Shown here piece by piece: positions 12,619-55,965 of a stretch of DNA of 64,000 nucleotides. The stretch comes from a virus. The stretch covers positions 65,341-129,340 of IMG/VR virus record IMGVR_UViG_3300032516_000003. One strand, 5' to 3'. Each line of letters opens with the position of its first letter. Position 1 is the first letter of the stretch. The position numbers and the translations under genes were made by a program. The notes below the pieces were generated by a model. It made no database searches, was not told where the DNA came from, and saw only the letters and a list, made by a program, of their open reading frames with translations.

Positions 12619-12639
12619 CGTCGAAGACGAGGTGACCCG

Positions 12640-30672: not shown

Positions 30673-30680
30673 GGTTTGGT

Positions 30681-30709
30681 AGATTACCAGCGATTACTCG
30701 CGTTGTCAA
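30681..30709 (-). promoter_or_regulatory. sigma70-like promoter (TTGACA -17- TAATCT) for the HNH gene
   Basis: Near-consensus hexamers in the 38-nt AT-richer gap between the polA stop and the HNH start. Confidence 0.4.
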
Positions 30710-30710
30710 G

Positions 30711-33700: not shown

Positions 33701-33749
33701 CGTCGGCCCTGTCCACGTACGTGACAGGGGGGACCCACTGGATCATCAT
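30711..33749 (-). CDS. polA: family-A DNA polymerase with 3'-5' exonuclease domain, interrupted by an intein
   Basis: Exo I AMDTETTGLD. Motif A DYEQLEMRLLAH. Motif B RQDAK|...|TIGFALNYG, split by the insert. Motif C VHDELVFEV. Confidence 0.85.
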   Translation of the reverse strand: MMIQWVPPVTYVDRADEMMKFVRHVRDTGECAMDTETTGLDRRKDHIVLWSASPDEKSRYCFSPNMLKIWDRELAPDPDLKWYFTNQTFDFSMLANSGVRVPEGDTYCTLAMDWLHDENRQGRHGLKETMWDYHQLQMKSFKDTFGTVKRNETIPERLQRGLRDDFEKAVSYASLDAYATLKVFRYLKAALEKETNTLGQSLWDYFVTYEMPFTRVLHNCCRRGIMVDVGYLDSLSPAIQVDIDRLEKQLVKVAGKEINPRSNPQLRELFFTKLGLKPIKMTSGGDSGNRQPSTDEECLQIWADDGVEAAVLLMQLRELSKFKGTYVDGMRKWTDQDGRIHATMTQHVTVTGRLSSVDPNLQNLPRPDNDKYVIRQAFMPKDGHVLVISDYEQLEMRLLAHFSEDPNMIGVINRGWDIHSGSAALMYDHDYDELIAAIKKKKAAAKDSSIKLSDEEKAMVLHRQDAKCVHPTTLVWSDGLRPMESFRFGEDPDTFLEISSGIQVATGRRESAVAVKATYNGGEKELLQVVARRGVLTCSHNHRFLLADGTLRKAEDLMPGDRLAEAAVPQLGTHPYPHWKRKMTSGIPASVLCLDHDVSYFAGLFLGDGCRSSDHAYGFAHGPCGSSDASGYPYSSWQDDLYHACTRIGLDSVRRHNTSLYIGSRHTGEYLEALDLIRNSKKLLRVPSWILQAGREAALHFLGGLIDTDGTVDKRDGDISLTTKDGIFAGQLAFMARACGLKIGLDPGWNSTYRRWYFRLKVMGSDGPTLRSYIRHPGKRDRIRRKASHKQLPDQVMTVIPVGPGPCVDLELADDDHLYLANGLITHNTIGFALNYGEGPKKLAKALDCTVDEAKAKIAKYFQPYPHIKNFIDDIHAVIADIHFVETILNRPRRFPEMATLGHMSRYHMRGSEKANLARNERQSVNSVIQGSAADVAKAAMLKCELDPRLRSLGVQMLLQVHDELVFEVPEETVVEAMPIIRELMEHPLPFDLLVPLNVDMGAGYAWSSAKA
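31266..32348 (-). mobile_element. intein (361 aa, LAGLIDADG type) in Pol A motif B
   Basis: Starts at Cys468 (CVHPTTLVW). Contains YFAGLFLGDGC and LGGLIDTDGTV. Ends ...LYLANGLITHN with +1 Thr. The surrounding DNA is lower in GC. Confidence 0.8.
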
Positions 33750-35028: not shown

Positions 35029-35980
35029 TGACGCTCTGTATGACTTCCCTACTGAGGTTGTCGGGTTGTACCTTCTCGTCTTCGTAGTGCTCGGGGTACT
35101 CGCACACCTTGACGTCCAGGCCGCGCTCAGCTAGTCGGCAGCCTGTGTCGAGGGTTCCCTCCAATCCCGCTTGGTCATGATCCAGGAACAGGTAGATTGT
35201 CGCTCCCAAGCGGCTGAGCGTCAGTTCCTGGGCCCGGCTCATCCGGCTGCCCTGTAGGGCCACGGTCCATGGCCAGCCCTGCTGGATGAGCCAGATGCAG
35301 GCCTTGTATCCCTCCGCGATGATCAGCGTGTCCAGATCACCGTAGAAGATGTCCGGGAACACGTTGTGCATGTTCCACAGGAAGTTGTGGTTCCTGATCT
35401 CGTACCGCTCGTAGCGCGCCTTTACCGTGACGTCATCAGGCGCGTACTGCAACAGGTCAGCCGCCTTGTACACCTTGTAGCGCGGGCTGTCCTCATCTCT
35501 GACCGCTCGGCCAGAGATCCCCACCAAGTTGCCGTACAGATCCCGGATGGGGAAGGTGATTCGCAGCTCCCGCTTGTCGAAACCGATCTCCAGCTCTGCC
35601 AGCAGCTGCTTGTCAAAGCCAGCCTTCACCAGATCTGTTGGGCAGTACTGGAACACGCCCAACAGACTCTCGTTGATGAAGTGCTCACCCTTGCCCGGGT
35701 CGCGATCCTTGAGTGGATCCTTCGCCGGCTTGAGCTGCACGTTCTCCATGATCTGGTCGATCTGGGTGGAGGGGGCCCGCATCGCCTTGAGGAACTGGAG
35801 CAGCGTGCCCTTGGCGTGACAGGTGTGGCAGTACCAGAGACCGGTCTCGACGTTGATGTAGAAGCTGGGGTGCGACTCCTGGCCACCCTTGTGGAATGGA
35901 CAGGGGCCGCCCACGTTGTTGTTGCCTGAGGGCTTCACGAACCTCAGGAACTTCTGGGCGATGTCGAGTACGGTGCTCAA
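34919..35980 (-). CDS. DnaG-like DNA primase (zinc-binding plus Toprim)
   Basis: CPFHKGGQESHPSFYINVETGLWYCHTCHAKG (CHC2 zinc finger). IIAEGYKACIWLIQ...LFLDHDQAG (Toprim E...DxD). Confidence 0.7.
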   Translation of the reverse strand: MSTVLDIAQKFLRFVKPSGNNNVGGPCPFHKGGQESHPSFYINVETGLWYCHTCHAKGTLLQFLKAMRAPSTQIDQIMENVQLKPAKDPLKDRDPGKGEHFINESLLGVFQYCPTDLVKAGFDKQLLAELEIGFDKRELRITFPIRDLYGNLVGISGRAVRDEDSPRYKVYKAADLLQYAPDDVTVKARYERYEIRNHNFLWNMHNVFPDIFYGDLDTLIIAEGYKACIWLIQQGWPWTVALQGSRMSRAQELTLSRLGATIYLFLDHDQAGLEGTLDTGCRLAERGLDVKVCEYPEHYEDEKVQPDNLSREVIQSVIDAAPDFRVWRRDNGLQRSPKSSIQSADSRRQRSPC

Positions 35981-38745
35981 TTCTTCCCTTTCTCCTTTTT
36001 GCCCTTGAACGCCTTGGCCGCGACGGTATGTACGATGTTGGAGAGAGCCGCCGGCGTGCGCGGCCCATCGCTGTTCTTCTTGCGCTCCGCCTTGAGATTG
36101 TCGGAACCCTTGAAGAAGGCCGCGACGTCCTTGCGCTGGTAGAAGATTACCGGTTCCGTTTGAGGCTCACCCGCTTCATTGGTGAGCACCACACCCTCGT
36201 CGTTGCGCTTCTTGCGCATGACCACGCCGAAGTCGGTGGCCGCGTTGCCGTGGATGACGAAGCCGTACAGGTTGATCTCACGTGCGGCAGGGATGCAGAG
36301 CGCCAACAGGTTGCGCTCCGGGTCTCCGGTCTCTTCCTTGTTCACCTCCATGCACAGGTCGGCGTTCATCCCGTAGGCATCCGCGAAGGCGATGTTCCGC
36401 ACCGAGTAGCCTCGGGAATCCTCGGAATCACGGTTGGCCTGGGTGGTGATGACAATGGGACGCCGGTAGACCATCGCCGTCTCCTTCAGCTCCGTGACGA
36501 TGTCGGCCTGGTCCTCCCACTTGATCGACCGCTTGCCCGACTTGTCGTTCTTCATCAGGTAGGCGGCGTCCACGTAGATGATGTCCGGGTTGTGGTCGCG
36601 GATCTTCTGCTTGAGTCCTTCTACGCCACCACCATACTCGCCGCGGCGAGACTGATCTGTGGTGATGATGAAGCCCTTGTTGAACCCGGACTCCAGCCGG
36701 CAAGTCTCCTCATCAATCACCACCGTGTCCATCAGCGTGCGCAGGCGGTCCTTCATGGTGCCACCTTCCCAGACGGCAATCTGGTCCAGGCGACCCTTCC
36801 GGTAGGCGGAGTAGGGAGCATTGATGAGCAGACATGCAGTCCGGTCCATCATCTGCTCGGGCGACATCTCCCGGGTGTAGACCAGCACCCGGCGGTTGTG
36901 GTTGTAGGCGTGGACCGCCATTGACAGCAACACCCAGGTGTTATGCACGATGAAGTTCTCGACCACGAAGTTCGGATCTTGGCCATCCTCGATGCAGATG
37001 TCGTAGCAGGGGAGCACTCCGAGGTGCTCGATGCTCTTGATGCGCTCCCAGATGATGTCGCTGTCTGCCACCTTCTGCAGTTCGGGACTTTCGAGGGCCC
37101 GCGCCAAGAGCTGGAGCAGGTGCCTGCTGATGCGACCGGTCCTACGGAAGAACTTGCTCGCATCCAGCTTTGATCCGCCCCAGCGGGGCCAGGGCTTATC
37201 GACCTTGGCCTCCAATATCTGGGCCATGAGTCGATCGCTGTAAGGCACAGCATCGGCGTTCCTCTTCTCCATGACGTCGAGCATTGCCAGGCGCTCTAGG
37301 GCCTGCCGCTTTCGTGTCAGGCACAGATGGCTGCCGAGTACCTCATGGAGTTGCTGATGCTGTTCCTTGGAGTAAACCACCAGCATGTATGCGAACGTGT
37401 CGAAGTTGGTGACCAATTCTTGGATTCTCCCGCGGATACCAAAACGAGAGAGCAGATGCTGCACCCCTTCAAGTAGCTTTCTGCTGGCGCTGCTCCAGGA
37501 CACCGTGCTGCGAGAAACATGCCCATCCGTGTCTAGCAAGCCGGCGAGGAAAGCTGCCACAGATGCGGGGCTCGATCTGAAGATGCTTTCGGGGACCTCC
37601 TTGTCTGGTCCCTTCTTACCGTGCATCCCCAATTCGTGCAGACGATCTAGCAGTAGGTTGTGTTTACCCGATGCACGTACAATGCGGTATTCGATGGGTC
37701 GTGTCTCTTGGTGCAGCTCACAGTTGAACAGCGAAGAGGAGAGGCGCTCTACGAGAGCCTTCAATTCTTCATCCTCAGTGGTGAACTGCACCTCGTCCCT
37801 GGTGTAGTTGCCATCCCCAACGAGCATTCCTAGTAGTTGCGCTTCATCGGTTTCGATCTTGCTGCTGGGTTCCGTCTCTGGCAGTCGTCGTGCAGTGGCT
37901 ACGTAGTCTCCAGGTTGGAGCTCGCAGATGCGGCGATAACCACCGCCTGGCACCATGTAGAGGTGCTCTGTGCTGGTTCGCAGCAGAAGACCTGACTCAG
38001 TCTCAACCTCTACTGAGTCTTTCTCTCCGCTTACCACGCGCCGAGCTCGTGCCCACCTGGTCTTTCCCGTCTTTTCGGTGTAGGAGGGTACATCGAGCGA
38101 CTCAGGTAGCTGCTCGATGGGAACCAAGGAACCGTCACGCAGCATGATCTTCTGGCCGACCGGAACGCACTTCATCGACTTGGGCCGGCCGTATAGGACG
38201 ATCAGCTCTCGATTCTGGATACCACGAGTCTCCTCGTTCAGCGGCTTCCAGGGGTACGGGATGCCTTGGACGCTCTCCGGATTCTCGTACCGCTCGTAGC
38301 GCGCCATCGTCTCCTGCATGTAGCTGGAGACCTCGATGTCCTTGCCGATGCGGCGATCCTTGGAGACGGCTTCCAGGCGAGAGAGCGAGCGCGCCAGCAG
38401 CGCGTCAACATCCTTATGCTTCTTGTTGTTGTCCAGGATGTCATCGCATAACGCGCCCAGCTCCCGATTGGTGCGGTAGTCGAGCAGGTCCTTGATGTGT
38501 ACTGCCAGTGGTGTGCGGCTGGTGCGCGGCAGGGAGATGTGTGGGAACTTCTCCTCCAGTCGTTCACGGGTGGGTACTGTGCCCTTGCTCTCATCCGACT
38601 CGTAGAACGCGGCGATGTCATTCCACAGCTGCCGCGCCCCATCATCGGCGAAGCACTCGGCCGAAACCCCTTCGTCGACTGCCAGCCGGAAGTTGCCTTC
38701 CTCGACGAGCTTGGCGATGAACAGCAGCTCTTCGTTGGCCGGCAT
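35977..38745 (-). CDS. DnaB-like replicative helicase interrupted by an intein in the P-loop
   Basis: Walker A GRPKSMK|...|TWVLLSMAV. Downstream SxEMS-like REMSPEQM and Walker B IIYVDAAYLM. Start set at MPANEE (TGATG overlap with the upstream stop). Overlaps the primase start as ATGA. Confidence 0.75.
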   Translation of the reverse strand: MPANEELLFIAKLVEEGNFRLAVDEGVSAECFADDGARQLWNDIAAFYESDESKGTVPTRERLEEKFPHISLPRTSRTPLAVHIKDLLDYRTNRELGALCDDILDNNKKHKDVDALLARSLSRLEAVSKDRRIGKDIEVSSYMQETMARYERYENPESVQGIPYPWKPLNEETRGIQNRELIVLYGRPKSMKCVPVGQKIMLRDGSLVPIEQLPESLDVPSYTEKTGKTRWARARRVVSGEKDSVEVETESGLLLRTSTEHLYMVPGGGYRRICELQPGDYVATARRLPETEPSSKIETDEAQLLGMLVGDGNYTRDEVQFTTEDEELKALVERLSSSLFNCELHQETRPIEYRIVRASGKHNLLLDRLHELGMHGKKGPDKEVPESIFRSSPASVAAFLAGLLDTDGHVSRSTVSWSSASRKLLEGVQHLLSRFGIRGRIQELVTNFDTFAYMLVVYSKEQHQQLHEVLGSHLCLTRKRQALERLAMLDVMEKRNADAVPYSDRLMAQILEAKVDKPWPRWGGSKLDASKFFRRTGRISRHLLQLLARALESPELQKVADSDIIWERIKSIEHLGVLPCYDICIEDGQDPNFVVENFIVHNTWVLLSMAVHAYNHNRRVLVYTREMSPEQMMDRTACLLINAPYSAYRKGRLDQIAVWEGGTMKDRLRTLMDTVVIDEETCRLESGFNKGFIITTDQSRRGEYGGGVEGLKQKIRDHNPDIIYVDAAYLMKNDKSGKRSIKWEDQADIVTELKETAMVYRRPIVITTQANRDSEDSRGYSVRNIAFADAYGMNADLCMEVNKEETGDPERNLLALCIPAAREINLYGFVIHGNAATDFGVVMRKKRNDEGVVLTNEAGEPQTEPVIFYQRKDVAAFFKGSDNLKAERKKNSDGPRTPAALSNIVHTVAAKAFKGKKEKGKN
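36940..38169 (-). mobile_element. intein (410 aa, LAGLIDADG type) in the helicase P-loop
   Basis: CVPVGQKIMLRDG... with LLGMLVGDGNY and LAGLLDTDGHV. Ends NFIVHN with +1 Thr. Confidence 0.8.
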
Positions 38746-39104
38746 CAGTTCACCTTGCGGAGCACGATCTGACTCTTGGGAAAGATCAAGGTGCCGGCCG
38801 TGCCTTCGACTAGACATAGCGTGTAGCGGTCGATCCACTTGAGCGTGCCGGCGTACTCTTTCTCGCCATACATCACCACTACGACCGACCCAATCCAGTC
38901 GCGCACCTCGGTGTGCCAGTTGTCCTGGACGTTCAGCAGATCCTTCAGCTGCCGCACGTCCTTCTCCAGCCGGTCCACCTTGTCCTTCAGACTCTGTAGC
39001 TTCTTGGACTGATCATTCTGGGGCATGGGAGGTCTCCTGAGGGTGGGGGGAGTGGCAGCATCTACTGCCTCGAATTGAACGTCAAGACAGTAGATGCCAA
39101 CCAC
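38745..39104 (-). CDS. coiled-coil protein with possible Sm/Hfq-like C-terminal domain
   Basis: SVVVVMYGEKEYAGTLKWIDRYTLCLVEG...IFPKSQIVL resembles the Sm1/Sm2 pattern. Confidence 0.35.
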   Translation of the reverse strand: MVGIYCLDVQFEAVDAATPPTLRRPPMPQNDQSKKLQSLKDKVDRLEKDVRQLKDLLNVQDNWHTEVRDWIGSVVVVMYGEKEYAGTLKWIDRYTLCLVEGTAGTLIFPKSQIVLRKVN

Positions 39105-44036: not shown

Positions 44037-44065
44037 GTTGTACATACGTTGTGGGGCCAAGTCAA
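44037..44065 (-). promoter_or_regulatory. sigma70-like promoter candidate (TTGACT -17- TACAAC) upstream of the SF2 helicase
   Basis: Hexamers found on the minus strand in the 68-nt gap. Confidence 0.3.
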
Positions 44066-44556
44066 GCCACATTCAAGTAACGTGCCGCCCTCCTTAGAAG
44101 TTCGGGGTTATCTCTGAAGTATCCTATGCCGTGGTTGCAGGCATGGCAGAGCAAGCCGCGAATGCGCCCAGTCCTATGATCGTGGTCAATGTGGAGCTTG
44201 CCCCACCTCTTTTCGGGTTGGTGCGGAGCCTTGCATAAGGCACATCGGTTGCGCTGTTTCTTGAGAAGCTGCTCGTAGGCTTCTGGAGTGAGACCGTACC
44301 TCTTCAGCCATGTCCTGTGAGACATGGCCTTGACCCGATCTGGGTGGGCGTCATCCCACTCCCGCTTCTTGACGGTGCCGTATCCCGGGTGTCTAGCCCT
44401 CCAGTTGCGTGTGTAATTCAGGCAGCGCTCACAGGCGGCGAAGCCGTTCGGCTCCTTTGTATGCCCGCACCACCTACAGCGCTTACTTGATTCTGTAGGA
44501 GCGCCAGAAACTGTACATCTCCCAGAATGTGCCACGAAGGGCGCCGGCAGCAGCAT
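44062..44556 (-). CDS. endonuclease VII-family resolvase with extra N-terminal zinc-binding region
   Basis: CALCKAPHQ...KLHIDHDHRTGRIRGLLCHACNHGIGYF matches T4 endo VII (CLICQ...HLDHDHELNG..GKVRGLLCNLCN). Confidence 0.65.
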   Translation of the reverse strand: MLLPAPFVAHSGRCTVSGAPTESSKRCRWCGHTKEPNGFAACERCLNYTRNWRARHPGYGTVKKREWDDAHPDRVKAMSHRTWLKRYGLTPEAYEQLLKKQRNRCALCKAPHQPEKRWGKLHIDHDHRTGRIRGLLCHACNHGIGYFRDNPELLRRAARYLNVA

Positions 44557-44845
44557 CCTTCAAGAAGCGTTCGATGGGCTTTTCATGCTCCTCCACCTGG
44601 CCGCCTTCATACCGGCCGACCACTCCATCGTCACGGCGACCACTGCCGGTCACCCGAATGCTGGTGCCACTACCGCTGCTGCTGCTTCCTCGCTCGGCCC
44701 GGCTCTCCCGCTCGATCGAGGCGGCGCAGGAATGGCGGAATCGACAGCCGGAGCACTCGCTGTCACTGGGGTCGAAGGACCGCTCATTGCCCCAGCAGTT
44801 GGGCTTCTGAGCGGCCGTTGATCTGAGGTACTCTGCGTAGCTCAA
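44483..44845 (-). CDS. Cys-containing hypothetical protein
   Basis: 120-aa ORF and the first gene of the minus block. It overlaps endo VII by 74 nt, so one of the two starts is probably internal. Confidence 0.3.
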   Translation of the reverse strand: MSYAEYLRSTAAQKPNCWGNERSFDPSDSECSGCRFRHSCAASIERESRAERGSSSSGSGTSIRVTGSGRRDDGVVGRYEGGQVEEHEKPIERFLKDAAAGALRGTFWEMYSFWRSYRIK

Positions 44846-44884
44846 GTTGGCCTCCTTTCATGGGGCGTGCTTGGGGGTTCAGAA

Positions 44885-44921
44885 CAAGGAGCTTATGCCA
44901 CCGAACCTGCCAGAGTTGCGG
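44885..44921 (+). promoter_or_regulatory. conserved 37-nt motif, copy 1 (caaggagCTTATGCCACCGAAcctgccaGAGTTGCgg)
   Basis: 28/37 identical to 55881-55917, including an identical 14-mer. Lies in the divergent intergenic region. Confidence 0.4.
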
Positions 44922-44923
44922 GG

Positions 44924-44953
44924 TTGACCCAGGGGTAGGTACATGGGTACTAT
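44924..44953 (+). promoter_or_regulatory. sigma70-like promoter candidate (TTGACC -18- TACTAT)
   Basis: Immediately downstream of motif copy 1, 24 nt before ATG 44977. Confidence 0.35.
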
Positions 44954-44976
44954 CGGGAGATCGCGAGAGGGACACC

Positions 44977-46185
44977 ATGCAGACTGGCCAAGTGCTGGAC
45001 TTCTACGATGACCCGACCGGCATGGTCCTGAAGACCAAGCTGGCCTATGGGCAGCTCCCGGAATTCATCAAGACAGCCCAGCACCTGGACGAGGCAGCCC
45101 GGGAGAGGCTGCCAGATGACGTCTTCGCCTTGATCATGGTGGACCAGGGCCAGCCCTTCCGGAAGTACGCCTGCCAGGACCAGGGCAACACTGCTCTCAG
45201 CGTCATCTACTTCCTGGAGAACCACCACAAGCTGCCCGAGGAGGCCCAGAAGGTGGCTGCGGCCAACCTCCTCACGGCCTGTGGCTGGTACGACCTGGAG
45301 CCCCCGGCGCAGCTCCACAAGCTGGCCGCTGGTAGCAAGGTGAAGCGCTCTGAACTGGTGGGCTCAGAGATCATGCCCAAGTCCGGTCCCGAGAAGCAGG
45401 CGGCAGGAGACGAAGGCAACCCCGATCAGAGCACCCAGAATCCCGGCCGGGAAGAGCCATCCAAGCTGGGCTCCGCCCGCTACGTGGATGTGACTGGCCT
45501 GTCGTCTCCAGTCCGCTTGGTCGACCAGAAGGCCGAGCGATACGGGCTGGTCAAGGAGGGCGCGGCCAGGTTCCCGCTCGACGGCTATGGCGAGGTCAAG
45601 CAAGCGTCGGCCTGGTTCGATGAGTACCACCAGAGCCTGCACCCAGCCGACCGGCACGAGTTCGCCACCAAGCTGGCGGCCCGCGCCAATGAGCTGGACA
45701 TCAAGGTCTCGGACCTGATCAAGAAGTACGGCTCGACCGACTACGCCCCGAGTGGTGAGGTCAACCTCGCCATCCACACCCGCATGCAGCACTGGGCCGA
45801 GGATGCGCCCGAGCGGGACATGCTCAAGGGGCTGATGGGCAAGTATGCCAGCGTCCAGCCCGAGGTCTTCTGTGAGGCGCTGCGCCAGTTCGACGAGCTG
45901 CACGACCTCGACCGCGAGTGGGACGAGACGATCTACGATCCCTGGTACTCTACCTACGGCTTCGACAAGACGGCCGAGGAGTGGGTCTTCTCCCATGCGG
46001 GGGAGAGGATCACCAGCGAGCAGCTGCGCAACTTCGCCAAGAGCGAGCGCTACTGCAAGATCAAGCACATGTTCGGCGATGAGCTGGCGGATGGGCTGAA
46101 GAAGAACCCCGAGAAGATCTTCGATTCCCTTCCGCTGGACTCCAAGCGTATCATCATGCGACTGGCTGCCGATCCGCAGCCCTAA
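44977..46185 (+). CDS. hypothetical virion-module protein (403 aa)
   Basis: The first gene of the second plus-strand block, starting MQTGQV. No motifs recognised. Confidence 0.5.
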   Translation: MQTGQVLDFYDDPTGMVLKTKLAYGQLPEFIKTAQHLDEAARERLPDDVFALIMVDQGQPFRKYACQDQGNTALSVIYFLENHHKLPEEAQKVAAANLLTACGWYDLEPPAQLHKLAAGSKVKRSELVGSEIMPKSGPEKQAAGDEGNPDQSTQNPGREEPSKLGSARYVDVTGLSSPVRLVDQKAERYGLVKEGAARFPLDGYGEVKQASAWFDEYHQSLHPADRHEFATKLAARANELDIKVSDLIKKYGSTDYAPSGEVNLAIHTRMQHWAEDAPERDMLKGLMGKYASVQPEVFCEALRQFDELHDLDREWDETIYDPWYSTYGFDKTAEEWVFSHAGERITSEQLRNFAKSERYCKIKHMFGDELADGLKKNPEKIFDSLPLDSKRIIMRLAADPQP

Positions 46186-46200
46186 GGCAAGGAGAGAGCA

Positions 46201-47241
46201 ATGAAGCAGAGCAAGTCTTTCGGAGCGGAGCGTGCGTTTCGGCAGCACATCCTCATGGGGCATGGGCTGGCGAGGGAGGTCGTTGACCTCCGTGCTGACG
46301 TAGAGGAAGGTTTCCAGAACAACGAGGCACGGGCCAGCTTCCCGCACCTCGACTGGCTGGATGCCACGACTGGTGTCCTGCTGGCAGCGGGTGGCCCGAT
46401 CAAGCTGTTGGGCCGCAACCTGTGGCAGGATCAGACCTTCGACACACTGACCCTGGGCACGGGCACTGCCGGCGTCATCTTCACGATGCTCAAGCCAGGT
46501 GACAGCAACACCTTCGTCAAGATCGTGCAGGGTGCGGGCGGTAGCGCCACGGCAGCCTTTGACGCCAACACCAAGTCCCACCACACCTTCGCGAGCGCCC
46601 ACATTGACACAGTGGTGCGGGCAGTCACGGCAGGTCCTGCTGGTGATGGCCTCCTCGTCGCACTGGTCGGCGACTCGCCCACTAGCAGCGGCGTGCTGAT
46701 CGAGGAGTCCGGCAAGCACATCTACATCCACTACGAGGTGGGTGTCTCCACGCGCGCCAACGTCGAGACGGCCATTGGTGCCAGCGCGACTCTGATCGAG
46801 GTCGCCACGGCTGGTTCCGCTACTGGCGCCATCACGGCTGCGGAAGCGGTCACTCCGACCAACCTGGTCGGCGGTGGTTGTCAGCTGCTCACGGTCACGC
46901 TCAAGGGCGCCGGCAGCACCGCGACGGAGGTCTGCACGGCAGTCAATGCTGAGGCGACGGCGATCGGCGTCATCTTCGCCAAGGTCCTCAGTGGTGGTAG
47001 TGGCACCGTGCTGGTAGCAGCCGAGACGGCTATGGCCGGTGGTGATGGCCTGTACGCGGGCAACAAGATCTGGGTCGCTGGTGTGGAATGCCTGCCGACG
47101 CAGATGAATGCGGCCTGGACGAACACGGAACTCTACGTGACGGTTCCGGCGCTGACAGGCAAGGCAGCCACCGACCTGGTGAATGTCATGGTCTCCAGCA
47201 ACGGAGTCACCAGCGAGGCGCTCAGCGGCGTCCTGGCATAG
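46201..47241 (+). CDS. Ala/Gly/Thr-rich 346-aa protein, candidate capsid or decoration protein
   Basis: Strong RBS AAGGAGAGAGCA-ATG. The composition is typical of abundant structural proteins. Confidence 0.5.
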   Translation: MKQSKSFGAERAFRQHILMGHGLAREVVDLRADVEEGFQNNEARASFPHLDWLDATTGVLLAAGGPIKLLGRNLWQDQTFDTLTLGTGTAGVIFTMLKPGDSNTFVKIVQGAGGSATAAFDANTKSHHTFASAHIDTVVRAVTAGPAGDGLLVALVGDSPTSSGVLIEESGKHIYIHYEVGVSTRANVETAIGASATLIEVATAGSATGAITAAEAVTPTNLVGGGCQLLTVTLKGAGSTATEVCTAVNAEATAIGVIFAKVLSGGSGTVLVAAETAMAGGDGLYAGNKIWVAGVECLPTQMNAAWTNTELYVTVPALTGKAATDLVNVMVSSNGVTSEALSGVLA

Positions 47242-47277
47242 CCGGTGTCGACCCACAGTAGATGCTGACGCCCAGCT

Positions 47278-47478
47278 TTGCAGGTGGACCACATAGACGG
47301 AGGTGGTACTAGGGAGCGCAGAGGCTGCGGCATGTGGCAGTACTACAAGAGCATGCTGCTGCCTGGAGCCAAAGATCGATACCAGCTGCTCTGCGCCAAC
47401 TGCAACTGGATCAAGCGATACGAAGAAAACGAAGATCGGCGAGGTCGCCTGCAAATAGAGATGGCTACACATGTCTAG
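47278..47478 (+). CDS. mini HNH-motif ORF (possibly a truncated HNH endonuclease)
   Basis: VDHIDGGG...LLCANCNWIK. TTG start. It lacks the usual N-terminal Cys pair. Confidence 0.35.
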   Translation: MQVDHIDGGGTRERRGCGMWQYYKSMLLPGAKDRYQLLCANCNWIKRYEENEDRRGRLQIEMATHV

Positions 47479-48307
47479 CACCGACCATGAACAGCGGCTA
47501 CTCGCCGTCCTCGAAAAGATCGGTCAGGCGGAGGAGCAGGCTGGGCTTCCTCCGCCCATGCCAGAGGCTGCGGGTCCAGCATCAGGAGCCAGCACGACCG
47601 AGCGTGCTGGCGCACCAGATGCGCCTGCGCCGGTCACCCGCAAGAACTTCTTCGCCCACTACGACACGCATCCCGTGGTCTTCGATGTAGCGCTGCTCCA
47701 CAAGTACAACGCGGACTGGTACGGCTGGGAGCCGGCCACCTTGTGGCAGGAGATTCTGGCCGACTTCCACGTGCCTTCAATCAGCGACCACAACAAGGCC
47801 AAGATCCAGGCGATCAGAACGCTGCACATCAACGAGTGGTTCTGGATCCAGTGGGAGGTCTTCAACTGGATCACTCAGGCGCTGAACGGCAACATCCCTG
47901 ACTTCCAGGTCATCCAGAAGCCCACCGTGGCGCAGCTGGTGAACGCGGTGGACATCGCGACACTCGTTCGCGACGGGGAGCAGTTTGGCCCCGAGGTGCA
48001 GATGTACACGGCCGCGGCAATGGCGGACGAGGGTGTGTACCATGCCCCCAAGCCGCTCACCTACTGCCAGGATGAGATCAAGCAGCTACTCGAAGTGACC
48101 CGGGCCGAGCATGTCCAGTCCACGATCCAAGACGTGCGGAATCGCCTGGCTGAGATCATGGCACTCAACGATGCCGACTGGGCCAAGGCAGATCCGATCC
48201 TGCACGAGAACTCAGTCGACATCCAGGTGGCCAAGCTCAAGGTGGCACTCGACTACCTCGGGCTACGACGGCGACAACTCCGGGCGCAGCTAGGACTACT
48301 GCAATGA
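47471..48307 (+). CDS. hypothetical protein
   Basis: 278-aa ORF. Confidence 0.5.
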   Translation: MSSTDHEQRLLAVLEKIGQAEEQAGLPPPMPEAAGPASGASTTERAGAPDAPAPVTRKNFFAHYDTHPVVFDVALLHKYNADWYGWEPATLWQEILADFHVPSISDHNKAKIQAIRTLHINEWFWIQWEVFNWITQALNGNIPDFQVIQKPTVAQLVNAVDIATLVRDGEQFGPEVQMYTAAAMADEGVYHAPKPLTYCQDEIKQLLEVTRAEHVQSTIQDVRNRLAEIMALNDADWAKADPILHENSVDIQVAKLKVALDYLGLRRRQLRAQLGLLQ

Positions 48308-49218
48308 GACACGTTGATGCCGCGCGCATGTCCGCCTTCGTGGACGAGCTGAACAAGACGGCCGGGTGGATGGGCACGCTGGGTAGAACCGCGCTCCGTA
48401 CCGGAGCCGCCATGGCCGGCGCCCCCGGTTCCTACGGGCGCCGTCTGGCTATAGGTGCAGGCGTCGGGGCGCTTGGTGGTGGTGCCGTCGATGAGGAGAA
48501 CCGACTGCGGGGCGCCTTGATCGGTGCCGGTCTCGGGGCAGGTGCCACTGGTGGGGCGATCCTCTCAACTCCCGCTGGCCGTGAGGAGGCCAAGAAGCTG
48601 GTGAAGCGCCAGGTGTACTCGCTCACGGGTCGGGGGGTAAAGGACCTTGAACATGCCCGTGAGCTGGGCATCGTCGCCAAAGACCCCACCGAAGCCACCC
48701 TCCGCCCAGGGCTGATCAACCGCGTCTTGGGTCGGACTCCTAAGGACCTACACGAGCGGGCTCTGGCGCAGGTCAAGCGGGAAGAAGAAGCTTTCACTGC
48801 CGGCCACTTGCATGCTCCAGGCATCCTCAAGGGCATGGTCACTCACCCATTGCAGACACTGAAGAGCGGCTGGCAGAGGTCGGGCGTTTTGGGCAAGGCC
48901 TTCACCGGACTCGGCGCCTACGAAGCTGGCAAGGGCTTCATCAAGAAGCCGGAGGAGGGTGGGCCAGGTCGGGCTGAGAGTGGGCTCAGGGCGCTTGGTA
49001 GCACCGCTGGAATGGTTCTCGCCCCACCGGTCCTTGCTGGTGGTATGCTGGTGAGCGAAGGACTTGGACAGACCGGCAAGTGGCTTGGCCGAGGTGTTGA
49101 TCGCGCAACGGGCCGGCTCAAGTCCCCAACGCATGACACAGCGGTACAGCGACCGGGACGCGAGATCATTCGACAGCATGTGGTCTCGCCCATTCAACAG
49201 ACGCTGGGAGTGACCTAA
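48304..49218 (+). CDS. Gly-zipper-rich hypothetical protein
   Basis: GAGVGALGGGAV...GALIGAGLGAGATGGAIL. Confidence 0.5.
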   Translation: MRHVDAARMSAFVDELNKTAGWMGTLGRTALRTGAAMAGAPGSYGRRLAIGAGVGALGGGAVDEENRLRGALIGAGLGAGATGGAILSTPAGREEAKKLVKRQVYSLTGRGVKDLEHARELGIVAKDPTEATLRPGLINRVLGRTPKDLHERALAQVKREEEAFTAGHLHAPGILKGMVTHPLQTLKSGWQRSGVLGKAFTGLGAYEAGKGFIKKPEEGGPGRAESGLRALGSTAGMVLAPPVLAGGMLVSEGLGQTGKWLGRGVDRATGRLKSPTHDTAVQRPGREIIRQHVVSPIQQTLGVT

Positions 49219-49219
49219 C

Positions 49220-52200
49220 GTGGCTACCTCCTCGATGTTCGGCGGCTCCCAGAGCGCGATGCGCTTCTCCCACACCCGTGGGAGAATCAGCGGCAGTCAG
49301 GACTACGGGCTTCAGTACCCCAGCCCCTTCTTCGACATCGCCCACACGTACCTGCCGGCCACCGTCAAGCAGATGTTCCGGTGGTGCCGGTACTACTTCC
49401 TCGTCAACCCACTGATCAACGCCATCGTAGCCAAGATGTCCGAGTACCCGGTCACGGACATCATCTTCGACACGGAGAAGCCGGAGCTCAAGCAACAGTG
49501 GAAGGACTTCCTGCTGGAGCACCTGCGCTATCGAGCGTTCCAGATCGAGACGGGCCTCGACTACTACACCTACGGCAACACCCTGATCAGCATCTTCTAC
49601 CCCTTCATCAAGCTGCTGGTCTGCCCATCTTGTGGCAAGAAGACGCCGGCCCGCGAGGCGGAGTACCGCTTTCAGAACTTCCAGTTCATCATCAGCTGCA
49701 GCTGTGGTCACCACGGCCCGGCTGATACGGTGGACCACTACATCCGGGCGCCCAAGGGCATCCGGCTGCTGCGCTGGAATCCTGAGGACGTGGACATCCG
49801 CTACAACGACATCACCGGCGAGTACGAGTACTACTACACGGTCCCCACGCCACTGCGGAACGACATCATCATGGGCCGCAAGTCGACGGTGGAGACTGTG
49901 CCCCAGTTGTTCATCGACGCCTTGAGGCTAAAGAAGGCGGTCGTCTTCAGCCGTGACAACATCTACCACTTCAAGCGCCCCACCTTGGCCACCAAGGATC
50001 GCGGCTGGGGCACGCCGATGATCCTGCCGGTGCTGAAGGACACCTTCTACCTGCAGATCCTGCGGAAGGCCCAAGAATGCGTGGCACCCTCGACACTCAT
50101 CGAGTCTGTTAATGGCCTGGTGCCGGCTGATGACGTACGGGTGGGGGATCTAGTTAGAACGCACACCGGCCAGTGGCAGCCAGTGGAGAAGAAGTGGTAT
50201 CGAGATGCCCGCGAGGAAGAGATCGGACGCAAAATCATACTGGCTGGGCTGCGACCGTTTGGTGCTGTCTACTCTCCACAGCACCCGGTGTTTAGCCTTC
50301 GTCGCAACGAGGAGGGTCGGAGGATTGATACCAAGGATCGCCAGCGATCTTCTGTGATCTTGCGCAACCCACACCTCTACGAAGAAGTGCTGTGTCCCGC
50401 CGAGCAGCTACAGGTAGGAGACTACGTGCTCTACCCGCGTCGGCTTCCGACGGAAGATACGACGGTAGACGTAGCCCAGTATACTGGACTGACATCTACA
50501 GATGGCTGGGTCTACAGTGGTTGCGGGGAAGAGACGGCACAGGCGTTTGAGGCTTTGGAGCGCGGTGAACATGTCACGCACGACAATGCAGGGCAGGTGG
50601 CAAAGAGGATCCTGAAGGAGGGCCGTACCCCCAAGCGTATGGCAGCCTCTAGGCTCATGACTGAGGACTTCGCCTACGTCTTGGGCTGGTACGCAGGAGA
50701 CGGCAGTTGTGGCACTCGCCACGTCACATTTTCCTTGGGCAAGAAGGACGACCCAGCGCCATTGATGGCCGCCATCAAACGCGAGTTCGATTCGGTCGCT
50801 ACTGTCGAGATGGGGGAGTCAATCAATTCGGTGGTACTGTCTGATGTCATAGTGCGTCAGCTGATCAAAGGCATGATCCCCGGCGTAGCCAGGATCAAGC
50901 GCGTCCCGATTGAGGTACTGAACGGCACGGATAAGGTGAAGTTGGCCTATCTGCGCGGGCTGTGGGAGGCCGATGGCTGCAGGAGCGAGCATCAAGCGAC
51001 GCTGGCTACCAGCAGCCGCGAGCAGGCGTACGACGTCTATCGCCTGCTGCTACACTTCGGCTGCATTGCTAGCGTAAACCAGCGTCAAACGGCTGACTCG
51101 CAGCTGTCTGACGGCAGAGTCATCGTTGGTGGTACCCACTACCATACAGTGGCCTGCAGTGCGTCTCGTGATCGCCTCATGTCTCTGCTGGAGTGCGGAG
51201 GTGGGCCAGAGATCACTTCAGGCAAGAGCGGCTTCTTCTGGAAGGACTATTTCGCGTCTAGGGTAAGCGCGATCGAGGAGTCTGATGAGGAGCAATACAT
51301 CGACTTCAAGGTCAAGAACGACACCACCTTCTGTACGCCGGGCACAGCGACGAAAAATTCTATTGCGCTCGAACACATCGTGCCTCTGCGAATCCTCTTC
51401 CCACAAGCCGGGTCTGCCACCAGCGACCCGTACTGTCTATCGGTCAGTACATTGGTGGAGATCAATAAGGGATATCTCCCCGCAGGCGAGGTGAAGGTAG
51501 GCGATCTGGTTAAGACCTATCGTGGCAAATACCTTCCGGTGATTGCGATCAAGCGACGCCTGGTCAAGAAAGCGGAGAAGGTGTACGCGATCGGGGTGGT
51601 TGGTATGTCGGCCTTCCCCGTGGAGGCGTCTGAAGACCATCCTTTCTTTGCGGTCCAAGCTGAGGGCCGGCAGAAGAGGTATATCGCGGACTGGCAGCCA
51701 GATTGGGTAGCGACTAAAGACCTGCAGATCGGGGACTATGTTGCCTATCCGTTAGCACGAGAGATCAAGAATAGCCTCTCGGTTGACGTAGCGCAGTATC
51801 TGAGCTCCTACGTGGCTACTGACGAGTGGGTATATCGGCAGATCACGAAGGAGGGGGCAGAAGTCTACGAGTATGTAGAGCAGAGAGAGCAGCGACTATT
51901 TGCGGGAGGAGAGCTGCAGCAAACTGCTGCACAACACGGCTGGTCAGTGCCCACTCTGCAAACTACCGCCAGCCGCTATCGGCGTGGCCATCGAACCTCC
52001 AGGATCCCGCGACATCTCTCATGGTCCAAGCATCTTGCTACGATCGTAGGGTACTACCTGGCCGAGGGTTGCATTGGGAATCATATTACCTTCTCTTTGC
52101 ATAAGAAGGAGACTTGGATCTGCGACGAACTAGATGTCGCCTTCACGGCGCTGTTGGGTAAGAAAGGCACCCGGCGAACTCATGGCGACAATGGCTTGGT

Positions 52201-55075
52201 CTACGAGATCAGTGACAGTATCTTCGGAGAGTTCCTCCAGAACTACCTCGGTCACTTGGCCTGGAACAAGCGACTGCCACAAGAGGTCGTGCATCTTCCA
52301 GACGAGGTCATTCGCGAGCTTGTACGCTGTCTAATCAATGGTGACGGGGGCCGCGAGGAATGTTACCGAGACAACGGTACAGGCAGAGCCTGCCGTACTT
52401 CTTCGATGACGTTCACTTCAACTTCCAGAGACTTGGCCTTGAAGCTACGAGAGTTGTTGCTCTACTTGAGGGTAGTGGGCAAGGTACACCGGACACCTGT
52501 CCGTGAGAGACGCAAGCACGAGATCTTCCGCGTGAAAGTGTCTGGTGCGGAGGCCGTGGGGCTTTGGCAGCAGCTTGGTTGGGCCCTCCCCGAATTGGAG
52601 GTCAAGAAGGACACCACACGTTCCTTCATCCAGGGAGACTACGCCTTCTTCAGGGTGCAGAAGAAGGCGGAGCTCCATGATGTTGACTTCGTCTATGGCT
52701 TCCAGGTGGATGGAGACAAGAGCTTCTGTGTTCCGGCGTGCGCCACCCACAATACCACGGTCAACCTCCAAGACTGGCGTGACCACGTCGCCGGGGAGAT
52801 CAGACGGTGGCGTTGCGTATCACCCGACTCCATGGTTGAAACCATGGAGGGGCTGCGCCCGGCCGGAGAAGTGACAGTAGGAGATTGGCTGAAGAACCGG
52901 CTTGGAGGTTACGATCGCGTAGTCAAGCGTCACGAACGCGCGCTTGATCCAGGGGAGTTGGCGTATCGCCTGAGGGTGCGTGGGCAGCACGCTATTCAGA
53001 CCGTCTACTCTGAGGAACACCCCATCTTTGCCGCGCGCAAGCAGAACAACGGCAACGGCCATAAGCTGGGGGCACGCGAGTTCATTCCTGTAGCTGCACT
53101 CTCTGTCGGTGACTATGTAGGTTATCCTACCCGACGAGATGTCGTAAAGTATGTTGATCTGGACATCTCAGCTCACGTAGATCGGGCGGCTACAGATAAG
53201 TTCGTGTACACCGACTACCTGGAGTCCGATACGCCTCTGGCGTTCGAGTACCTTGAGGCACATCCGCAGGCGGGGGCCGCAGAGGCGGCCGCGGCCTCGG
53301 GGTGTCCAATTACCCCGGCCAAGACGGCGCATAACGCCGTTCGGGAAGGGCGTACGCTTAGACGCATCCCACGGTACCTCCCGTTTGACAAAGATCTGAT
53401 GTACGTGCTCGGCCTCTACGTGGCCGAAGGCAACGCTACACCCAAGCAGGTGATGTTCTCCTTGCACAAGGACGAGACCGAGATCTGTCAGCGTCTGGAC
53501 AGCTTCTTCCTGTCACGGTTTGGTGCGCACAGAACTGGCGGGCAGAAGACTGAGAATGGGATCCAGATCGCTTACAGCAGTGTCATCGCTGCTCAGGTAT
53601 TCCATGGGCTGGTTCCTGGTATAGCCATGAACAAGCGTCTGCCAGAAGCAGTTCGCCAGGCATCAGACGAACTAGCACTTGAGGCAGTGCGTGGCGTACT
53701 TGATGGTGATGGGTGCTACTATACCGACAAGACGGTGTTGGGAACCGCTAGTCGGCAGCTAGCAGAAGATGTGCGTCAACTGCTGCTATCTTGGGAAATC
53801 ATGCCCGGCATTTCTTTTGTTTCGGGCGGTCCCACCATCATCTGTGGTCGCGAGACCGTAGGCCACGGCTGCTACCTCGTTCAGGTCTCTGGTGACCAGC
53901 ACGCCAAGCTACAGGCACTCTTGCAAGGGGTGTCCTATACGGGTGCTGAGCACTGTAGATCAGGGCTATTCCGGGATGGCTTTGCCTGGTTCCGCATTGA
54001 GGCCATCGAAGAAGCTGAGCCGGAGAAGGTAGTGGCCTTCCAGATGGATGGTGACAGCACCTTCTGTACCTGGGGCGTGGCCACTCACAATAGCGACAAC
54101 AACTACATCCCCATCATGCCGCTGCCCATCGGCAACCAGACTATCGGCGGGGATGGCCGGGCCCTGCTTCTCAGCCAGGAGATCCGGGTATGGTCGGAGC
54201 ACATCGTGGCTGGGATGGGCGTACCAGTAGAGCTCATCTTCGGCGGCATGAGCTACTCGGGTAGCAACGTGTCGCTGCGCATGCTGGAGAACACCTACCT
54301 CGGCTACCTGCAGGACCAGCTCTCACTGCTGCGCTGGGTCATCCGCAACGTGTCCTCCTACTTGGGCTGGGCACCAGTGCGGGCCCGCTTCAAGCCGTTC
54401 AAGATGGCCGACGACCTGCAGCGGAAGGCCTACCTGTTCCAGCTGAGCCAGGCCGGCAAGCTCTCGGACGAGTCACTCCTGGCGGACGCCGACTTCGACT
54501 CGACCAAGGAAGACGCGATCATAGAGCGTGAGGCCTCCCGCCGTTCGGAAGCGCTACGCAAGCAGCAACTCATGCAGGCTGACATCCAGGGTGAAGCCCA
54601 GATGCAGAGCATGAAGTGGCAGACCAAGGCGCAGACCAAGGCGCTGAAGGAGCAGACGGCCATGCAGAACGAGATGGCCAAAGATCAACTGGCTACTCAA
54701 GCCGCCGCGCAGCAGGGACAGATCCCGCCGCCGCTGCCTCCTCGACCTGACCTGATTCAGCCGCCTCAGGAAGTGAAGTCACCACTCACCCTGCAGTCGG
54801 TGCAGCCCATCACCCCGGCCACCACCGGCGAATCCCTGGTCGGCCAGCAGAACATCGACCTGCTCTACCTCGGCCGCCAGCTCGCCGATCGCATCAACAA
54901 CATGGATGAGCTGCAGAAGCCGCAGGCCTTGGCGCAGCTGCGTGAAGACTCACCACAACTCTATGACGTCGTCTTGGGGCTAATGGCAAGCGGACCGAAG
55001 GGTCAAGTATCCGCCGGGCGGCCCCTGCCTGAGCAGAGACCGCCACGGCGGGGTCCAGAGAGCAGCTTGATCTAA
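49220..55075 (+). CDS. portal (T7 gp8-like head-tail connector) carrying three inteins. Mature extein about 658 aa
   Basis: Extein NNYIPIMPLPIG...GDGRALL resembles T7 gp8 YIPIRMVRLDGESYG, and the Q-rich C-terminal helix resembles gp8's C-terminus. The 1951-aa ORF minus inserts of 427, 440 and 426 aa gives about 658 aa. Confidence 0.65.
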   Translation: MATSSMFGGSQSAMRFSHTRGRISGSQDYGLQYPSPFFDIAHTYLPATVKQMFRWCRYYFLVNPLINAIVAKMSEYPVTDIIFDTEKPELKQQWKDFLLEHLRYRAFQIETGLDYYTYGNTLISIFYPFIKLLVCPSCGKKTPAREAEYRFQNFQFIISCSCGHHGPADTVDHYIRAPKGIRLLRWNPEDVDIRYNDITGEYEYYYTVPTPLRNDIIMGRKSTVETVPQLFIDALRLKKAVVFSRDNIYHFKRPTLATKDRGWGTPMILPVLKDTFYLQILRKAQECVAPSTLIESVNGLVPADDVRVGDLVRTHTGQWQPVEKKWYRDAREEEIGRKIILAGLRPFGAVYSPQHPVFSLRRNEEGRRIDTKDRQRSSVILRNPHLYEEVLCPAEQLQVGDYVLYPRRLPTEDTTVDVAQYTGLTSTDGWVYSGCGEETAQAFEALERGEHVTHDNAGQVAKRILKEGRTPKRMAASRLMTEDFAYVLGWYAGDGSCGTRHVTFSLGKKDDPAPLMAAIKREFDSVATVEMGESINSVVLSDVIVRQLIKGMIPGVARIKRVPIEVLNGTDKVKLAYLRGLWEADGCRSEHQATLATSSREQAYDVYRLLLHFGCIASVNQRQTADSQLSDGRVIVGGTHYHTVACSASRDRLMSLLECGGGPEITSGKSGFFWKDYFASRVSAIEESDEEQYIDFKVKNDTTFCTPGTATKNSIALEHIVPLRILFPQAGSATSDPYCLSVSTLVEINKGYLPAGEVKVGDLVKTYRGKYLPVIAIKRRLVKKAEKVYAIGVVGMSAFPVEASEDHPFFAVQAEGRQKRYIADWQPDWVATKDLQIGDYVAYPLAREIKNSLSVDVAQYLSSYVATDEWVYRQITKEGAEVYEYVEQREQRLFAGGELQQTAAQHGWSVPTLQTTASRYRRGHRTSRIPRHLSWSKHLATIVGYYLAEGCIGNHITFSLHKKETWICDELDVAFTALLGKKGTRRTHGDNGLVYEISDSIFGEFLQNYLGHLAWNKRLPQEVVHLPDEVIRELVRCLINGDGGREECYRDNGTGRACRTSSMTFTSTSRDLALKLRELLLYLRVVGKVHRTPVRERRKHEIFRVKVSGAEAVGLWQQLGWALPELEVKKDTTRSFIQGDYAFFRVQKKAELHDVDFVYGFQVDGDKSFCVPACATHNTTVNLQDWRDHVAGEIRRWRCVSPDSMVETMEGLRPAGEVTVGDWLKNRLGGYDRVVKRHERALDPGELAYRLRVRGQHAIQTVYSEEHPIFAARKQNNGNGHKLGAREFIPVAALSVGDYVGYPTRRDVVKYVDLDISAHVDRAATDKFVYTDYLESDTPLAFEYLEAHPQAGAAEAAAASGCPITPAKTAHNAVREGRTLRRIPRYLPFDKDLMYVLGLYVAEGNATPKQVMFSLHKDETEICQRLDSFFLSRFGAHRTGGQKTENGIQIAYSSVIAAQVFHGLVPGIAMNKRLPEAVRQASDELALEAVRGVLDGDGCYYTDKTVLGTASRQLAEDVRQLLLSWEIMPGISFVSGGPTIICGRETVGHGCYLVQVSGDQHAKLQALLQGVSYTGAEHCRSGLFRDGFAWFRIEAIEEAEPEKVVAFQMDGDSTFCTWGVATHNSDNNYIPIMPLPIGNQTIGGDGRALLLSQEIRVWSEHIVAGMGVPVELIFGGMSYSGSNVSLRMLENTYLGYLQDQLSLLRWVIRNVSSYLGWAPVRARFKPFKMADDLQRKAYLFQLSQAGKLSDESLLADADFDSTKEDAIIEREASRRSEALRKQQLMQADIQGEAQMQSMKWQTKAQTKALKEQTAMQNEMAKDQLATQAAAQQGQIPPPLPPRPDLIQPPQEVKSPLTLQSVQPITPATTGESLVGQQNIDLLYLGRQLADRINNMDELQKPQALAQLREDSPQLYDVVLGLMASGPKGQVSAGRPLPEQRPPRRGPESSLI
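50078..51358 (+). mobile_element. portal intein 1 (427 aa, LAGLIDADG type)
   Basis: ...RKAQE|CVAPSTLIES... with VLGWYAGDGSC and LRGLWEADGC. Ends TFCTPGTATKN with +1 Ser, so the penultimate residue is Lys rather than His. Confidence 0.75.
51434..52753 (+). mobile_element. portal intein 2 (440 aa, LAGLIDADG type)
   Basis: ...SDPY|CLSVSTLVEINKG... with IVGYYLAEGCIG and LVRCLINGDGG. Ends SFCVPACATHN with +1 Thr. Confidence 0.75.
52814..54091 (+). mobile_element. portal intein 3 (426 aa, LAGLIDADG type)
   Basis: ...IRRWR|CVSPDSMVETMEG... with VLGLYVAEGNAT and VRGVLDGDGCY. Ends TFCTWGVATHN with +1 Ser. Confidence 0.75.
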
Positions 55076-55689: not shown

Positions 55690-55836
55690 CTACTCGTCGT
55701 CCTCGCTGCCTGGTTTGTCGGTGTTGTCCTCTTGTTCCTGGTCGTCTCCTCCAGATGGATCGGTGGTGGGGTCGAGCGCGTCATCAAGCTCGTCTTCGAG
55801 CTCACCCAGTGAGCCACGTCCTGGGGAACACAGCAT
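55690..55836 (-). CDS. 48-aa highly acidic micro-protein
   Basis: AAGGAG sits 8 nt before the ATG. MLCSPGRGSLGELEDELDDALDPTTDPSGGDDQEQEDNTDKPGSEDDE has 19 D/E in 48 residues. Confidence 0.3.
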   Translation of the reverse strand: MLCSPGRGSLGELEDELDDALDPTTDPSGGDDQEQEDNTDKPGSEDDE

Positions 55837-55880
55837 GAGATAGGTCTCCTTTCTCTATGATACTTATACCTCAGGGCGAA

Positions 55881-55917
55881 CAAGAGTCTTATGCCACCGA
55901 ATGTTGCGGAGTTGCAG
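55881..55917 (+). promoter_or_regulatory. conserved 37-nt motif, copy 2 (caagagtCTTATGCCACCGAAtgttgcgGAGTTGCag)
   Basis: Lies 49 nt upstream of the RNAP start codon. See copy 1. Confidence 0.4.
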
Positions 55918-55965
55918 AAGGATGGGACTCTCTGATACCCTCTACCCATGTGATGGAGGACATAG

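Follow-up and report, generated by a model that had tools for sequence, protein, structure and literature searches.

The 64,000-nt stretch analysed here (the window) comes from a metagenomic phage contig of 193.7 kb (ENA ERZ27248201:k141_3956766), of which 83 of 194 kb were read. Two divergent gaps within it were examined. Gap 1 (44846-44976) separates a minus-strand gene of 120 aa (44483..44845, TTG start at 44845, ribosome-binding site AAGGAGG) from a plus-strand gene of 402 aa (ATG 44977). The 120-aa gene heads a minus-strand replication/recombination block (23365-44845) with genes for PolA, HU, a RecA-like protein, primase, DnaB, UDG, a helicase and endonuclease VII; in the other direction the 402-aa gene is the first of a plus-strand head-module operon (44977..55075), whose last gene (49220-55075, plus strand) encodes the portal, is interrupted by inteins and shows 32-34% identity to the gp204 portal of Salmonella phage Arash. 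Gap 2 (55837-55965) lies between a minus-strand gene of 48 aa (55690..55836, ATG 55836, ribosome-binding site AAGGAG), followed by genes of 39 aa and 153 aa, and a plus-strand gene (55966-63141, ATG 55966). The first-pass annotation, a reading made from the letters of the window, had named the latter an RNA polymerase gene, and this was borne out: the product is a single 2391-aa fusion of beta and beta' of a bacterial-type multisubunit polymerase, with a LAGLIDADG intein inside, and the gene is transcribed away from gap 2. As beta' aligns to bacterial beta' only from about residue 170-180, its N-terminal part is missing or divergent. The polymerase gene adjoins the portal gene in the head module, both in the window genome and in Arash.

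The homing-element load of this genome is unusually heavy. Inteins or LAGLIDADG domains were seen in the portal gene (1951 aa in the window vs. 678 aa in relative L120), in PolA (30711-33749, minus strand), in DnaB (35977-38838, minus strand) and in the large terminase (L158:16903-19827, plus strand; L158 is sequence of the same genome), and there are free-standing endonuclease VII/HNH genes at 44062-44556 and 63129-63773 and at 14313-14834 and 16473-16885 of L158. The replication genes also carry repeats: an exact 23-nt direct repeat, TCTCGTACCGCTCGTAGCGCGCC, at 35398-35420 and 38283-38305, inside two minus-strand genes (primase region and DnaB/intein region), and in-frame short tandem repeats at 34596-34633 and 34868-34904 (a 12-nt unit x3 and a 15-nt unit x2) inside the minus-strand gene 33838-35028.

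The first-pass annotation had drawn attention to a 37-nt element occurring once in each gap, and the repeat was confirmed, both sequences standing as quoted: copy 1 (44885-44921) and copy 2 (55881-55917) are identical at 28/37 positions, share an identical 14-mer (CTTATGCCACCGAA) and the 7-mer GAGTTGC, and lie in divergent gaps of about 130 nt, ending 55 nt (copy 1) and 48 nt (copy 2) before the plus-strand ATGs. A repeat search stretched the match to 38 nt at 79% (44882-44919 / 55878-55915). The best 38-nt intergenic match between gap 1 and gap 2 was 30/38, where 300 shuffles averaged 19.1 and never exceeded 23; chance does not account for the repeat, which is real. The recurrence of a 14-mer is in itself commonplace, with 86 different 14-mers recurring within the window. 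It had also been proposed to look for further copies, and none turned up for the exact 14-mer, which occurs only at the two sites in the window and the 83 kb assembled of the 194-kb genome. At least 118 stretches in IMG/VR hold the exact 14-mer; all were judged chance matches, the second box being present in none. A near-identity DNA search of phage records gave no match.

Read on the minus strand, both copies have the form GCAACTC-N11-GGTGG-CATAAG-N5-TG, in which a -35-like box is separated by an 18-nt spacer from a -10-like hexamer; the hexamer is preceded by an extended -10 G and followed, at exactly 7 nt, by a pyrimidine/purine step. The parts of copy 1 are GCAACTC at 44919-44913, the extended -10 TGG at 44900-44898, CATAAG at 44897-44892 and a predicted start G at 44885; those of copy 2 (box A) are GCAACTC at 55915-55909, TGG at 55896-55894, CATAAG at 55893-55888 and a predicted start G at 55881. 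The GG-CATAAG-N5-TG portions of copies 1 and 2 lie 46 and 51 nt, respectively, before minus-strand start codons. We aligned 27 sites from the window genome and its metagenomic relatives on the hexamer. The G two nt 5' of the hexamer was present in 27/27, and ATAAG of (T/C)ATAAG was invariant; thus A stands at -11 in every site, and -7, where T is usual for sigma-70, is G in every site. At the extended -10 position G was found in 27/27 and T in 7/27, the full TGG being present in both window copies and in the gap-4 copy described below. The -35 region, nnG(C/A)AA, lies exactly 18 nt upstream (G in 16/27, A in 23/27, A in 25/27), and the sixth and seventh bases past the hexamer are T in 23/27 and a purine in 27/27. 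As this T and purine stand where a sigma-type promoter starts, 44885 and 55881 are the predicted start sites; they are also the first bases of the element, so that the element would span +1 to -37 of a minus-strand promoter. A sub-type, GCAAYTC-N11-sTGG-CATAAG-N5-TGTT, is common to both window copies, the gap-4 copy and the ortholog of copy 2 in relative L131. A sigma-54 reading (TGCCAC...TTGC) was dismissed on inspection by eye, as it would need a spacing of 5 nt and that found is 14 nt.

The sigma-70-type promoter TTGACC-18-TACTAT that the first-pass annotation placed across copy 1 is indeed present on the plus strand (44924..44953), upstream of the head-module operon (402-aa gene through portal), but it does not overlap the element, beginning 3 nt past it. 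It is conserved in L126, L152 and L153 as TTGACC/TTGACA-18-TAGTAT/TAGACT. The promoter of the RNA polymerase gene (55912..55941, plus strand) comprises a -35 TTGCAG (55912-55917), an 18-nt spacer, and an extended -10 TGA plus TACCCT (55933-55941); relatives have TTGCnn-18-(TGn)TAnnnT, with TGnTAnnnT in 18/18 lineages and TTGnnn at 18 nt in about 14/18. The canonical promoters of these genomes carry T at -7 in 18/18. In D69 and Arash no intergenic enrichment was found for TGnTAGCTT, the clade-wide form of the polymerase-gene promoter. The GAGTTGC of copy 2 doubles as the polymerase-gene -35, the same 6 bp being read as TTGCAG or CTGCAA, and is the sole part of the element that serves the polymerase gene; in gap 1 the corresponding -35 boxes are 2 bp apart. 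Since the gap 2 promoters share -35 base pairs, they presumably cannot be occupied at the same time.

Other canonical promoters were seen in this genome. A third divergent gap of 71 nt (12569-12639) holds a near-consensus TTGACC-18-TAGAAT (12589-12618) for the 1195-aa gene of the tail/baseplate block, and no GGTATAAG-type box was found there for the opposing 104-aa gene. Two more lie 6-8 nt from an ATG, i.e., TTGACA-17-TAATCT (30673-30710, minus strand) before the gene 29959-30672, and TTGAAA-17-TAGTGT (L158:16437-16475, plus strand) before the HNH gene adjoining the terminase; from that distance the transcripts would be leaderless or nearly so.

About 20 metagenomic relatives have the core of the element at orthologous sites; they comprise about 20 lineages (IMG/VR, JGI metagenomes) with 44-91% identity over the polymerase N-terminus and GC contents from 36% to 64%. 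In gap 1 of four diverged genomes (including L126, L152 and L153) the distance from CTTATnnC to TTGC, start to start, is exactly 24 nt, and 46-50 nt separate the box from the start codon on the minus strand; the TTGC box and the plus-strand TTGACC are 4, 5, 14 or 24 nt apart. Upstream of the polymerase gene all relatives have a box CCTTATAyCCA, the counterpart of CTTATGCC in the window, with CTTAT to TTGC distances of 19, 24, 29-30 or about 62 nt, and the offset of this box to the polymerase gene -10 ranges from 38 to 75 nt. A fixed CTTAT-TTGC unit beside a floating plus-strand promoter indicates that the unit is not tied to the plus-strand promoter. In L131 the ortholog of copy 2 keeps the -35-like GCAACT, TGGCATAAG and TGTT while the spacer and the stretch past the hexamer have diverged, a pattern of change that fits the signature of a promoter under selection. 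The gap-1 leaders of the 120-aa gene in L126, L152 and L153 also share, on the minus strand, (a/c)CTAGCCA about 15-20 nt before the ribosome-binding site; it is absent from the window.

These distances bear on the proposal that the element serves the plus-strand blocks, acting from upstream as a promoter or activator site and, for the RNA polymerase gene, as a means of autoregulation. It is true that both copies, like the gap-3 site described below, lie 50-120 nt upstream of plus-strand genes, and that in gap 2 of most relatives the polymerase-gene extended -10 stands 49-51 nt away from the box. The latter spacing, however, is that expected for tightly packed back-to-back promoters (17-18 + 6 + 6 + 17-18), and the fixed position relative to the plus-strand promoter that marks an activator site or UP element was not found, as the distance varies in gap 1 (4-24 nt) and in gap 2 (38 to 75 nt). 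On the plus strand, moreover, the conserved step at the predicted start would be without a role. Two further observations count against the proposal, namely a gap-4 copy with no plus-strand gene nearby and 15 strong matches in Vibrio phage D69 that are all on the minus strand, within minus-strand gene blocks; both are taken up below. With promoter features found on the minus strand only and with the plus-strand genes having promoters of their own, we regard a plus-strand function of the element as very unlikely. All sites other than gap 4 are nevertheless also upstream of a plus-strand gene, which counts against reading the motif on the minus strand.

The pattern GCAA-N15-TGnnATAAG, expected 0.00 times by chance, found a third site in the same genome. 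This gap-4 copy, GCAATTC-N11-CTGG-CATAAG, lies at 20258-20231 of L158, at about window coordinate 73386, i.e., about 9.4 kb past the window end. Both neighbouring genes are on the minus strand, and 42 nt downstream of the copy follows an ATG with the ribosome-binding site AGGAGG. Gap 3 lies upstream of the large terminase and has no minus-strand protein gene; there the motif stands at the head of a structured unit of 165-230 nt that is non-coding. The unit gave folding z-scores of -4.9 and -5.0, and its end in relative L152 is an intrinsic terminator compatible with the minus strand only. We note it as a candidate new small RNA (L158:16248-16423, minus strand, at about window 69376-69551; orthologs L152:21200-21419 and L151:11990-12258), sitting between the large terminase and its preceding gene and beginning at a predicted GGTATAAG promoter; it would have a 5' hairpin and a long closing stem, the stem sequence of which differs between genomes. 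Rfam and tRNA/tmRNA scans assigned the unit to no known family, and a small ORF was disfavoured because of a 1-nt indel within the sole conserved stretch. A locus search by the large-terminase N-terminus for gaps 3 and 4 of relatives found nothing.

The nearest cultured phages by polymerase are Vibrio phage D69 and Salmonella phage Arash, at only about 31-33% identity. A 25-nt matrix trained only on the window's lineage was used to scan 147 kb of D69 at a cut-off of 15 bits or more; it gave 15 sites where shuffles averaged 1.2, and every one of the 15 is on the minus strand. Those D69 sites that were checked against the annotation were in or beside gaps before minus-strand genes, except 148045, which has no annotated gene. 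This one (minus strand; L162 24721) is a GTTATAAG site of 17 bits between two plus-strand pieces of the polymerase gene region, and could point to an antisense RNA or to a small gene that the annotation lacks. In Arash the lineage matrix gave 8 sites, seven on the minus strand before minus-strand genes and one on the plus strand just before gp9-gp10, and a scan with the simple pattern GnTATAAG around the portal and polymerase genes gave 7 more minus-strand sites. Wherever a D69 or Arash site faces an annotated gene, the motif strand is the gene strand, and the genes of the class in these two phages are outside the annotated virion modules. The -7 position is G in all 24 D69 and Arash training sites. 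The -35 region of the D69 sites is TCAACA-like, resembling TTGACA; in Arash there is no conservation there.

Both phages encode sigma factors, one or two per phage. Those of Arash are gp10 (L165:11892-12596), which was found in virions, and gp196 (L166:2483-3520); in D69, D69_0246 (L162:9861-10637) is by eye like gp196 N-terminally but matches gp10 only weakly by blastp (22% over 72 residues). Directly upstream of gp9-gp10 lies the only GGTATAAG site that was found on the plus strand in the first 50 kb of Arash.

A second matrix, trained on D69 and Arash only, was then turned on the window genome. It gave 26.0 bits for the gap-3 site, 19.3 for gap 4 and 22.6 for a second -10-like element that we call box B, GAGG-TATAAG-TATCATAG (55856..55872, hexamer 55868-55863, minus strand), situated 25 nt downstream of copy 2. 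Copy 1 scored 1.8 bits (rank 20) and copy 2 3.0 bits (rank 12) of 166,570 positions; by this matrix alone the window copies are indistinguishable from chance, and their putative assignment to the class rests on orthology, on the two-part spacing and on the gap-4 copy. Their sub-type is a divergent one, in which the hexamer begins with C and the A-rich stretch past it is lacking. Both nevertheless show GG-(T/C)ATAAG-N5-T-purine in an intergenic position 20-65 nt before a same-strand start codon, the features by which we define the class. The predicted class consensus is GG-TATAAG-N5-TGTA, clade-wide, of which the window copies are a weak, putatively lineage-specific variant (C first, -35-like box). 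Box B is far closer to this clade consensus than copy 2; its predicted start is at about 55856, some 19 nt before ATG 55836. With box B, the better match, only 25 nt further downstream, copy 2 may be a minor promoter or one with a different timing, and the small minus-strand genes may have tandem promoters (copy 2 and box B). A leaderless reading of box B was considered and set aside.

The two window copies are more alike than the motif demands, agreeing at about 15/23 positions beyond the conserved promoter ones (TTCGG in the spacer and CTCyT 3' of the hexamer), and this extra identity suggests either recent copying or an additional shared binding site. The latter would be an operator, overlaid on the promoter or taking its place, through which a regulator co-controls both divergent regions; the extra agreeing positions speak for it, as does their not being kept in the L131 ortholog. 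Neither gap, however, shows dyads or direct repeats of at least 7 nt, the extra positions are conserved in no relative and are missing from the gap-4 copy, and recent copying between the promoters is the simpler account, which leaves an operator unlikely. Recent copying between the two promoters is the most likely source of the extra identity. That the repeat is nothing else, i.e., a functionless remnant of duplication or gene conversion, might be argued from the window copies being more alike than copy 2 and its L131 ortholog; yet it is precisely the promoter-like positions that orthologs, paralogs and distant cultured phages have kept, and kept at a constant distance from start codons. We consider such a remnant barely tenable.

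We think it probable, from the conservation and spacing described above, that each copy corresponds to the core of a minus-strand promoter, about -37 to +1, and we infer that transcription starts at 44885 and 55881. Copy 1 (44885..44921) would drive the replication/recombination block starting at 44845, and copy 2 (55881..55917) the three small genes (48, 39 and 153 aa) starting at 55836, with the plus-strand genes served by canonical promoters of their own that stand back to back with the element; the divergent promoters in these gaps would then exclude each other. The first-pass annotation had thus surmised the kind of element correctly in part: the copies are promoter-like, and the motif class of the clade makes a phage-specific promoter plausible, but the orientation and the target genes it gave were wrong.

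It remains to consider which enzyme would read the motif, and here we lean toward a phage-encoded polymerase with a sigma factor over the host holoenzyme. In its full form, which we advance tentatively as one possibility, GG(T/C)ATAAG-N5-TGT would be the consensus of the phage's own fused beta-beta' polymerase with a phage sigma, possibly delivered in the virion, and the G at -7 would separate phage- from host-directed transcription clade-wide. The T at -7 of ordinary promoters is one of two bases flipped out and bound by sigma region 2 (PMC7598289). Arash virions contain beta (with the most spectra of any protein), beta' and the sigma Gp10 (PMC10585845); the invariant G at -7 together with these virion proteins makes a phage-specific holoenzyme plausible, if putative. 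The place of the polymerase gene in the head module, beside the portal gene here as in Arash, points the same way. Alternatively, the host primary-sigma holoenzyme could read the minus-strand promoter as an ordinary extended -10 early promoter with no phage factor. The layout is that of the sigma-70 family, with the 18-nt spacer of the canonical promoters in the same genome, an extended -10 G and A at -11; the D69 -35 region resembles TTGACA as noted, and no sigma gene was found within 83 kb of the 194-kb genome. Searches by tblastn or phmmer with D69_0246 and Arash gp10 and gp196 gave no sigma homologues in the lineage DNA searched (83 of 194 kb of this genome), and Pfam and PHROGs gave no sigma or gp55-like factor among about 40 window proteins. 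Against a host reading stand the G at -7 in 27/27 lineage sites and 24/24 sites of D69 and Arash, with T in 18/18 canonical promoters, the sigma factors and virion polymerase of the relatives, and a motif unchanged across phages of GC 36% to 64% and in Vibrio and Salmonella phages alike. On balance we hold the host reading doubtful.

What is gained in either case is a testable promoter consensus, common to uncultured sediment phages and to the cultured D69 and Arash, with G vs. T at -7 as a simple discriminator from the canonical promoters in the same genomes. Should a phage holoenzyme read the motif, the consensus would give the sequence specificity of a polymerase-sigma pair that is new, and it would mark out the early or middle regulon of the clade; the back-to-back placement of the polymerase gene and such a promoter would then be accounted for too, as the shared -35 would let the two compete. 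Should the host enzyme read it, the sites would be an ordinary early promoter set with an odd but conserved -7 base.

Tailed phages encoding a deep-branching bacterial-type beta/beta' RNA polymerase have been described from metagenomes (PMC7481178), and in the literature searched we found no description of promoters or transcription initiation for this phage clade. The closest likeness in layout is to extended -10 sigma-70 promoters (TGnTATAAT, with or without a -35), which have the same 18-nt spacer, extended -10 G and A at -11, and in which, as predicted here, the start is a purine after a pyrimidine 7 nt past the hexamer. They differ in having T at -7, where this class invariably has G, with the mid-hexamer T-A-A also invariant; the TAnnnT form of a sigma-70 -10, with A at -11 and T at -7, was accordingly not found. 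The -35 here is, moreover, only nnGCAA or GAAA (in the lineage) and is absent in Arash, and TGTA at the start site is conserved.

T4 late promoters have the sequence TATAAATA and are read by gp55. The likeness is in the type, a -10-only element beginning TATAA, for which in T4 a phage-encoded specificity factor replaces the host sigma. They differ in sequence, the relatives having TATAAGrA (6/8) and the window CATAAG where T4 has TATAAATA, in a spacing to the predicted start that is off by 1 nt, and in that the downstream genes here are replication or small genes, not late ones, with no gp55-like match among the proteins tested; the combination that marks a T4-type late promoter (TATAAATA at -13 to -6, late genes and a gp55-like factor) was thus not found.

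The early operons of phiKZ and AR9, jumbo phages whose virion RNA polymerase is injected, are preceded by a conserved motif that is about 10 nt long and centred at -10 (PMC7598289). The class described here likewise has a short, highly conserved motif around -10 that recurs before gene blocks not belonging to the annotated virion modules, and a phage polymerase is present in virions, as shown on this side for Arash (PMC10585845). The phiKZ and AR9 polymerases, in contrast, are split, with non-canonical beta/beta' and no recognisable sigma, and their motifs are different and AT-rich; here there is a fused bacterial-type beta-beta', there are sigma factors in the relatives, and the motif is sigma-like. 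The arrangement of each gap, finally, is that of back-to-back divergent bacterial promoters, with predicted starts about 67 and 75 bp apart and -35 regions that abut (gap 1) or coincide (gap 2), with the difference that the partners here belong to different classes (T or G at -7) and may be served by different holoenzymes.
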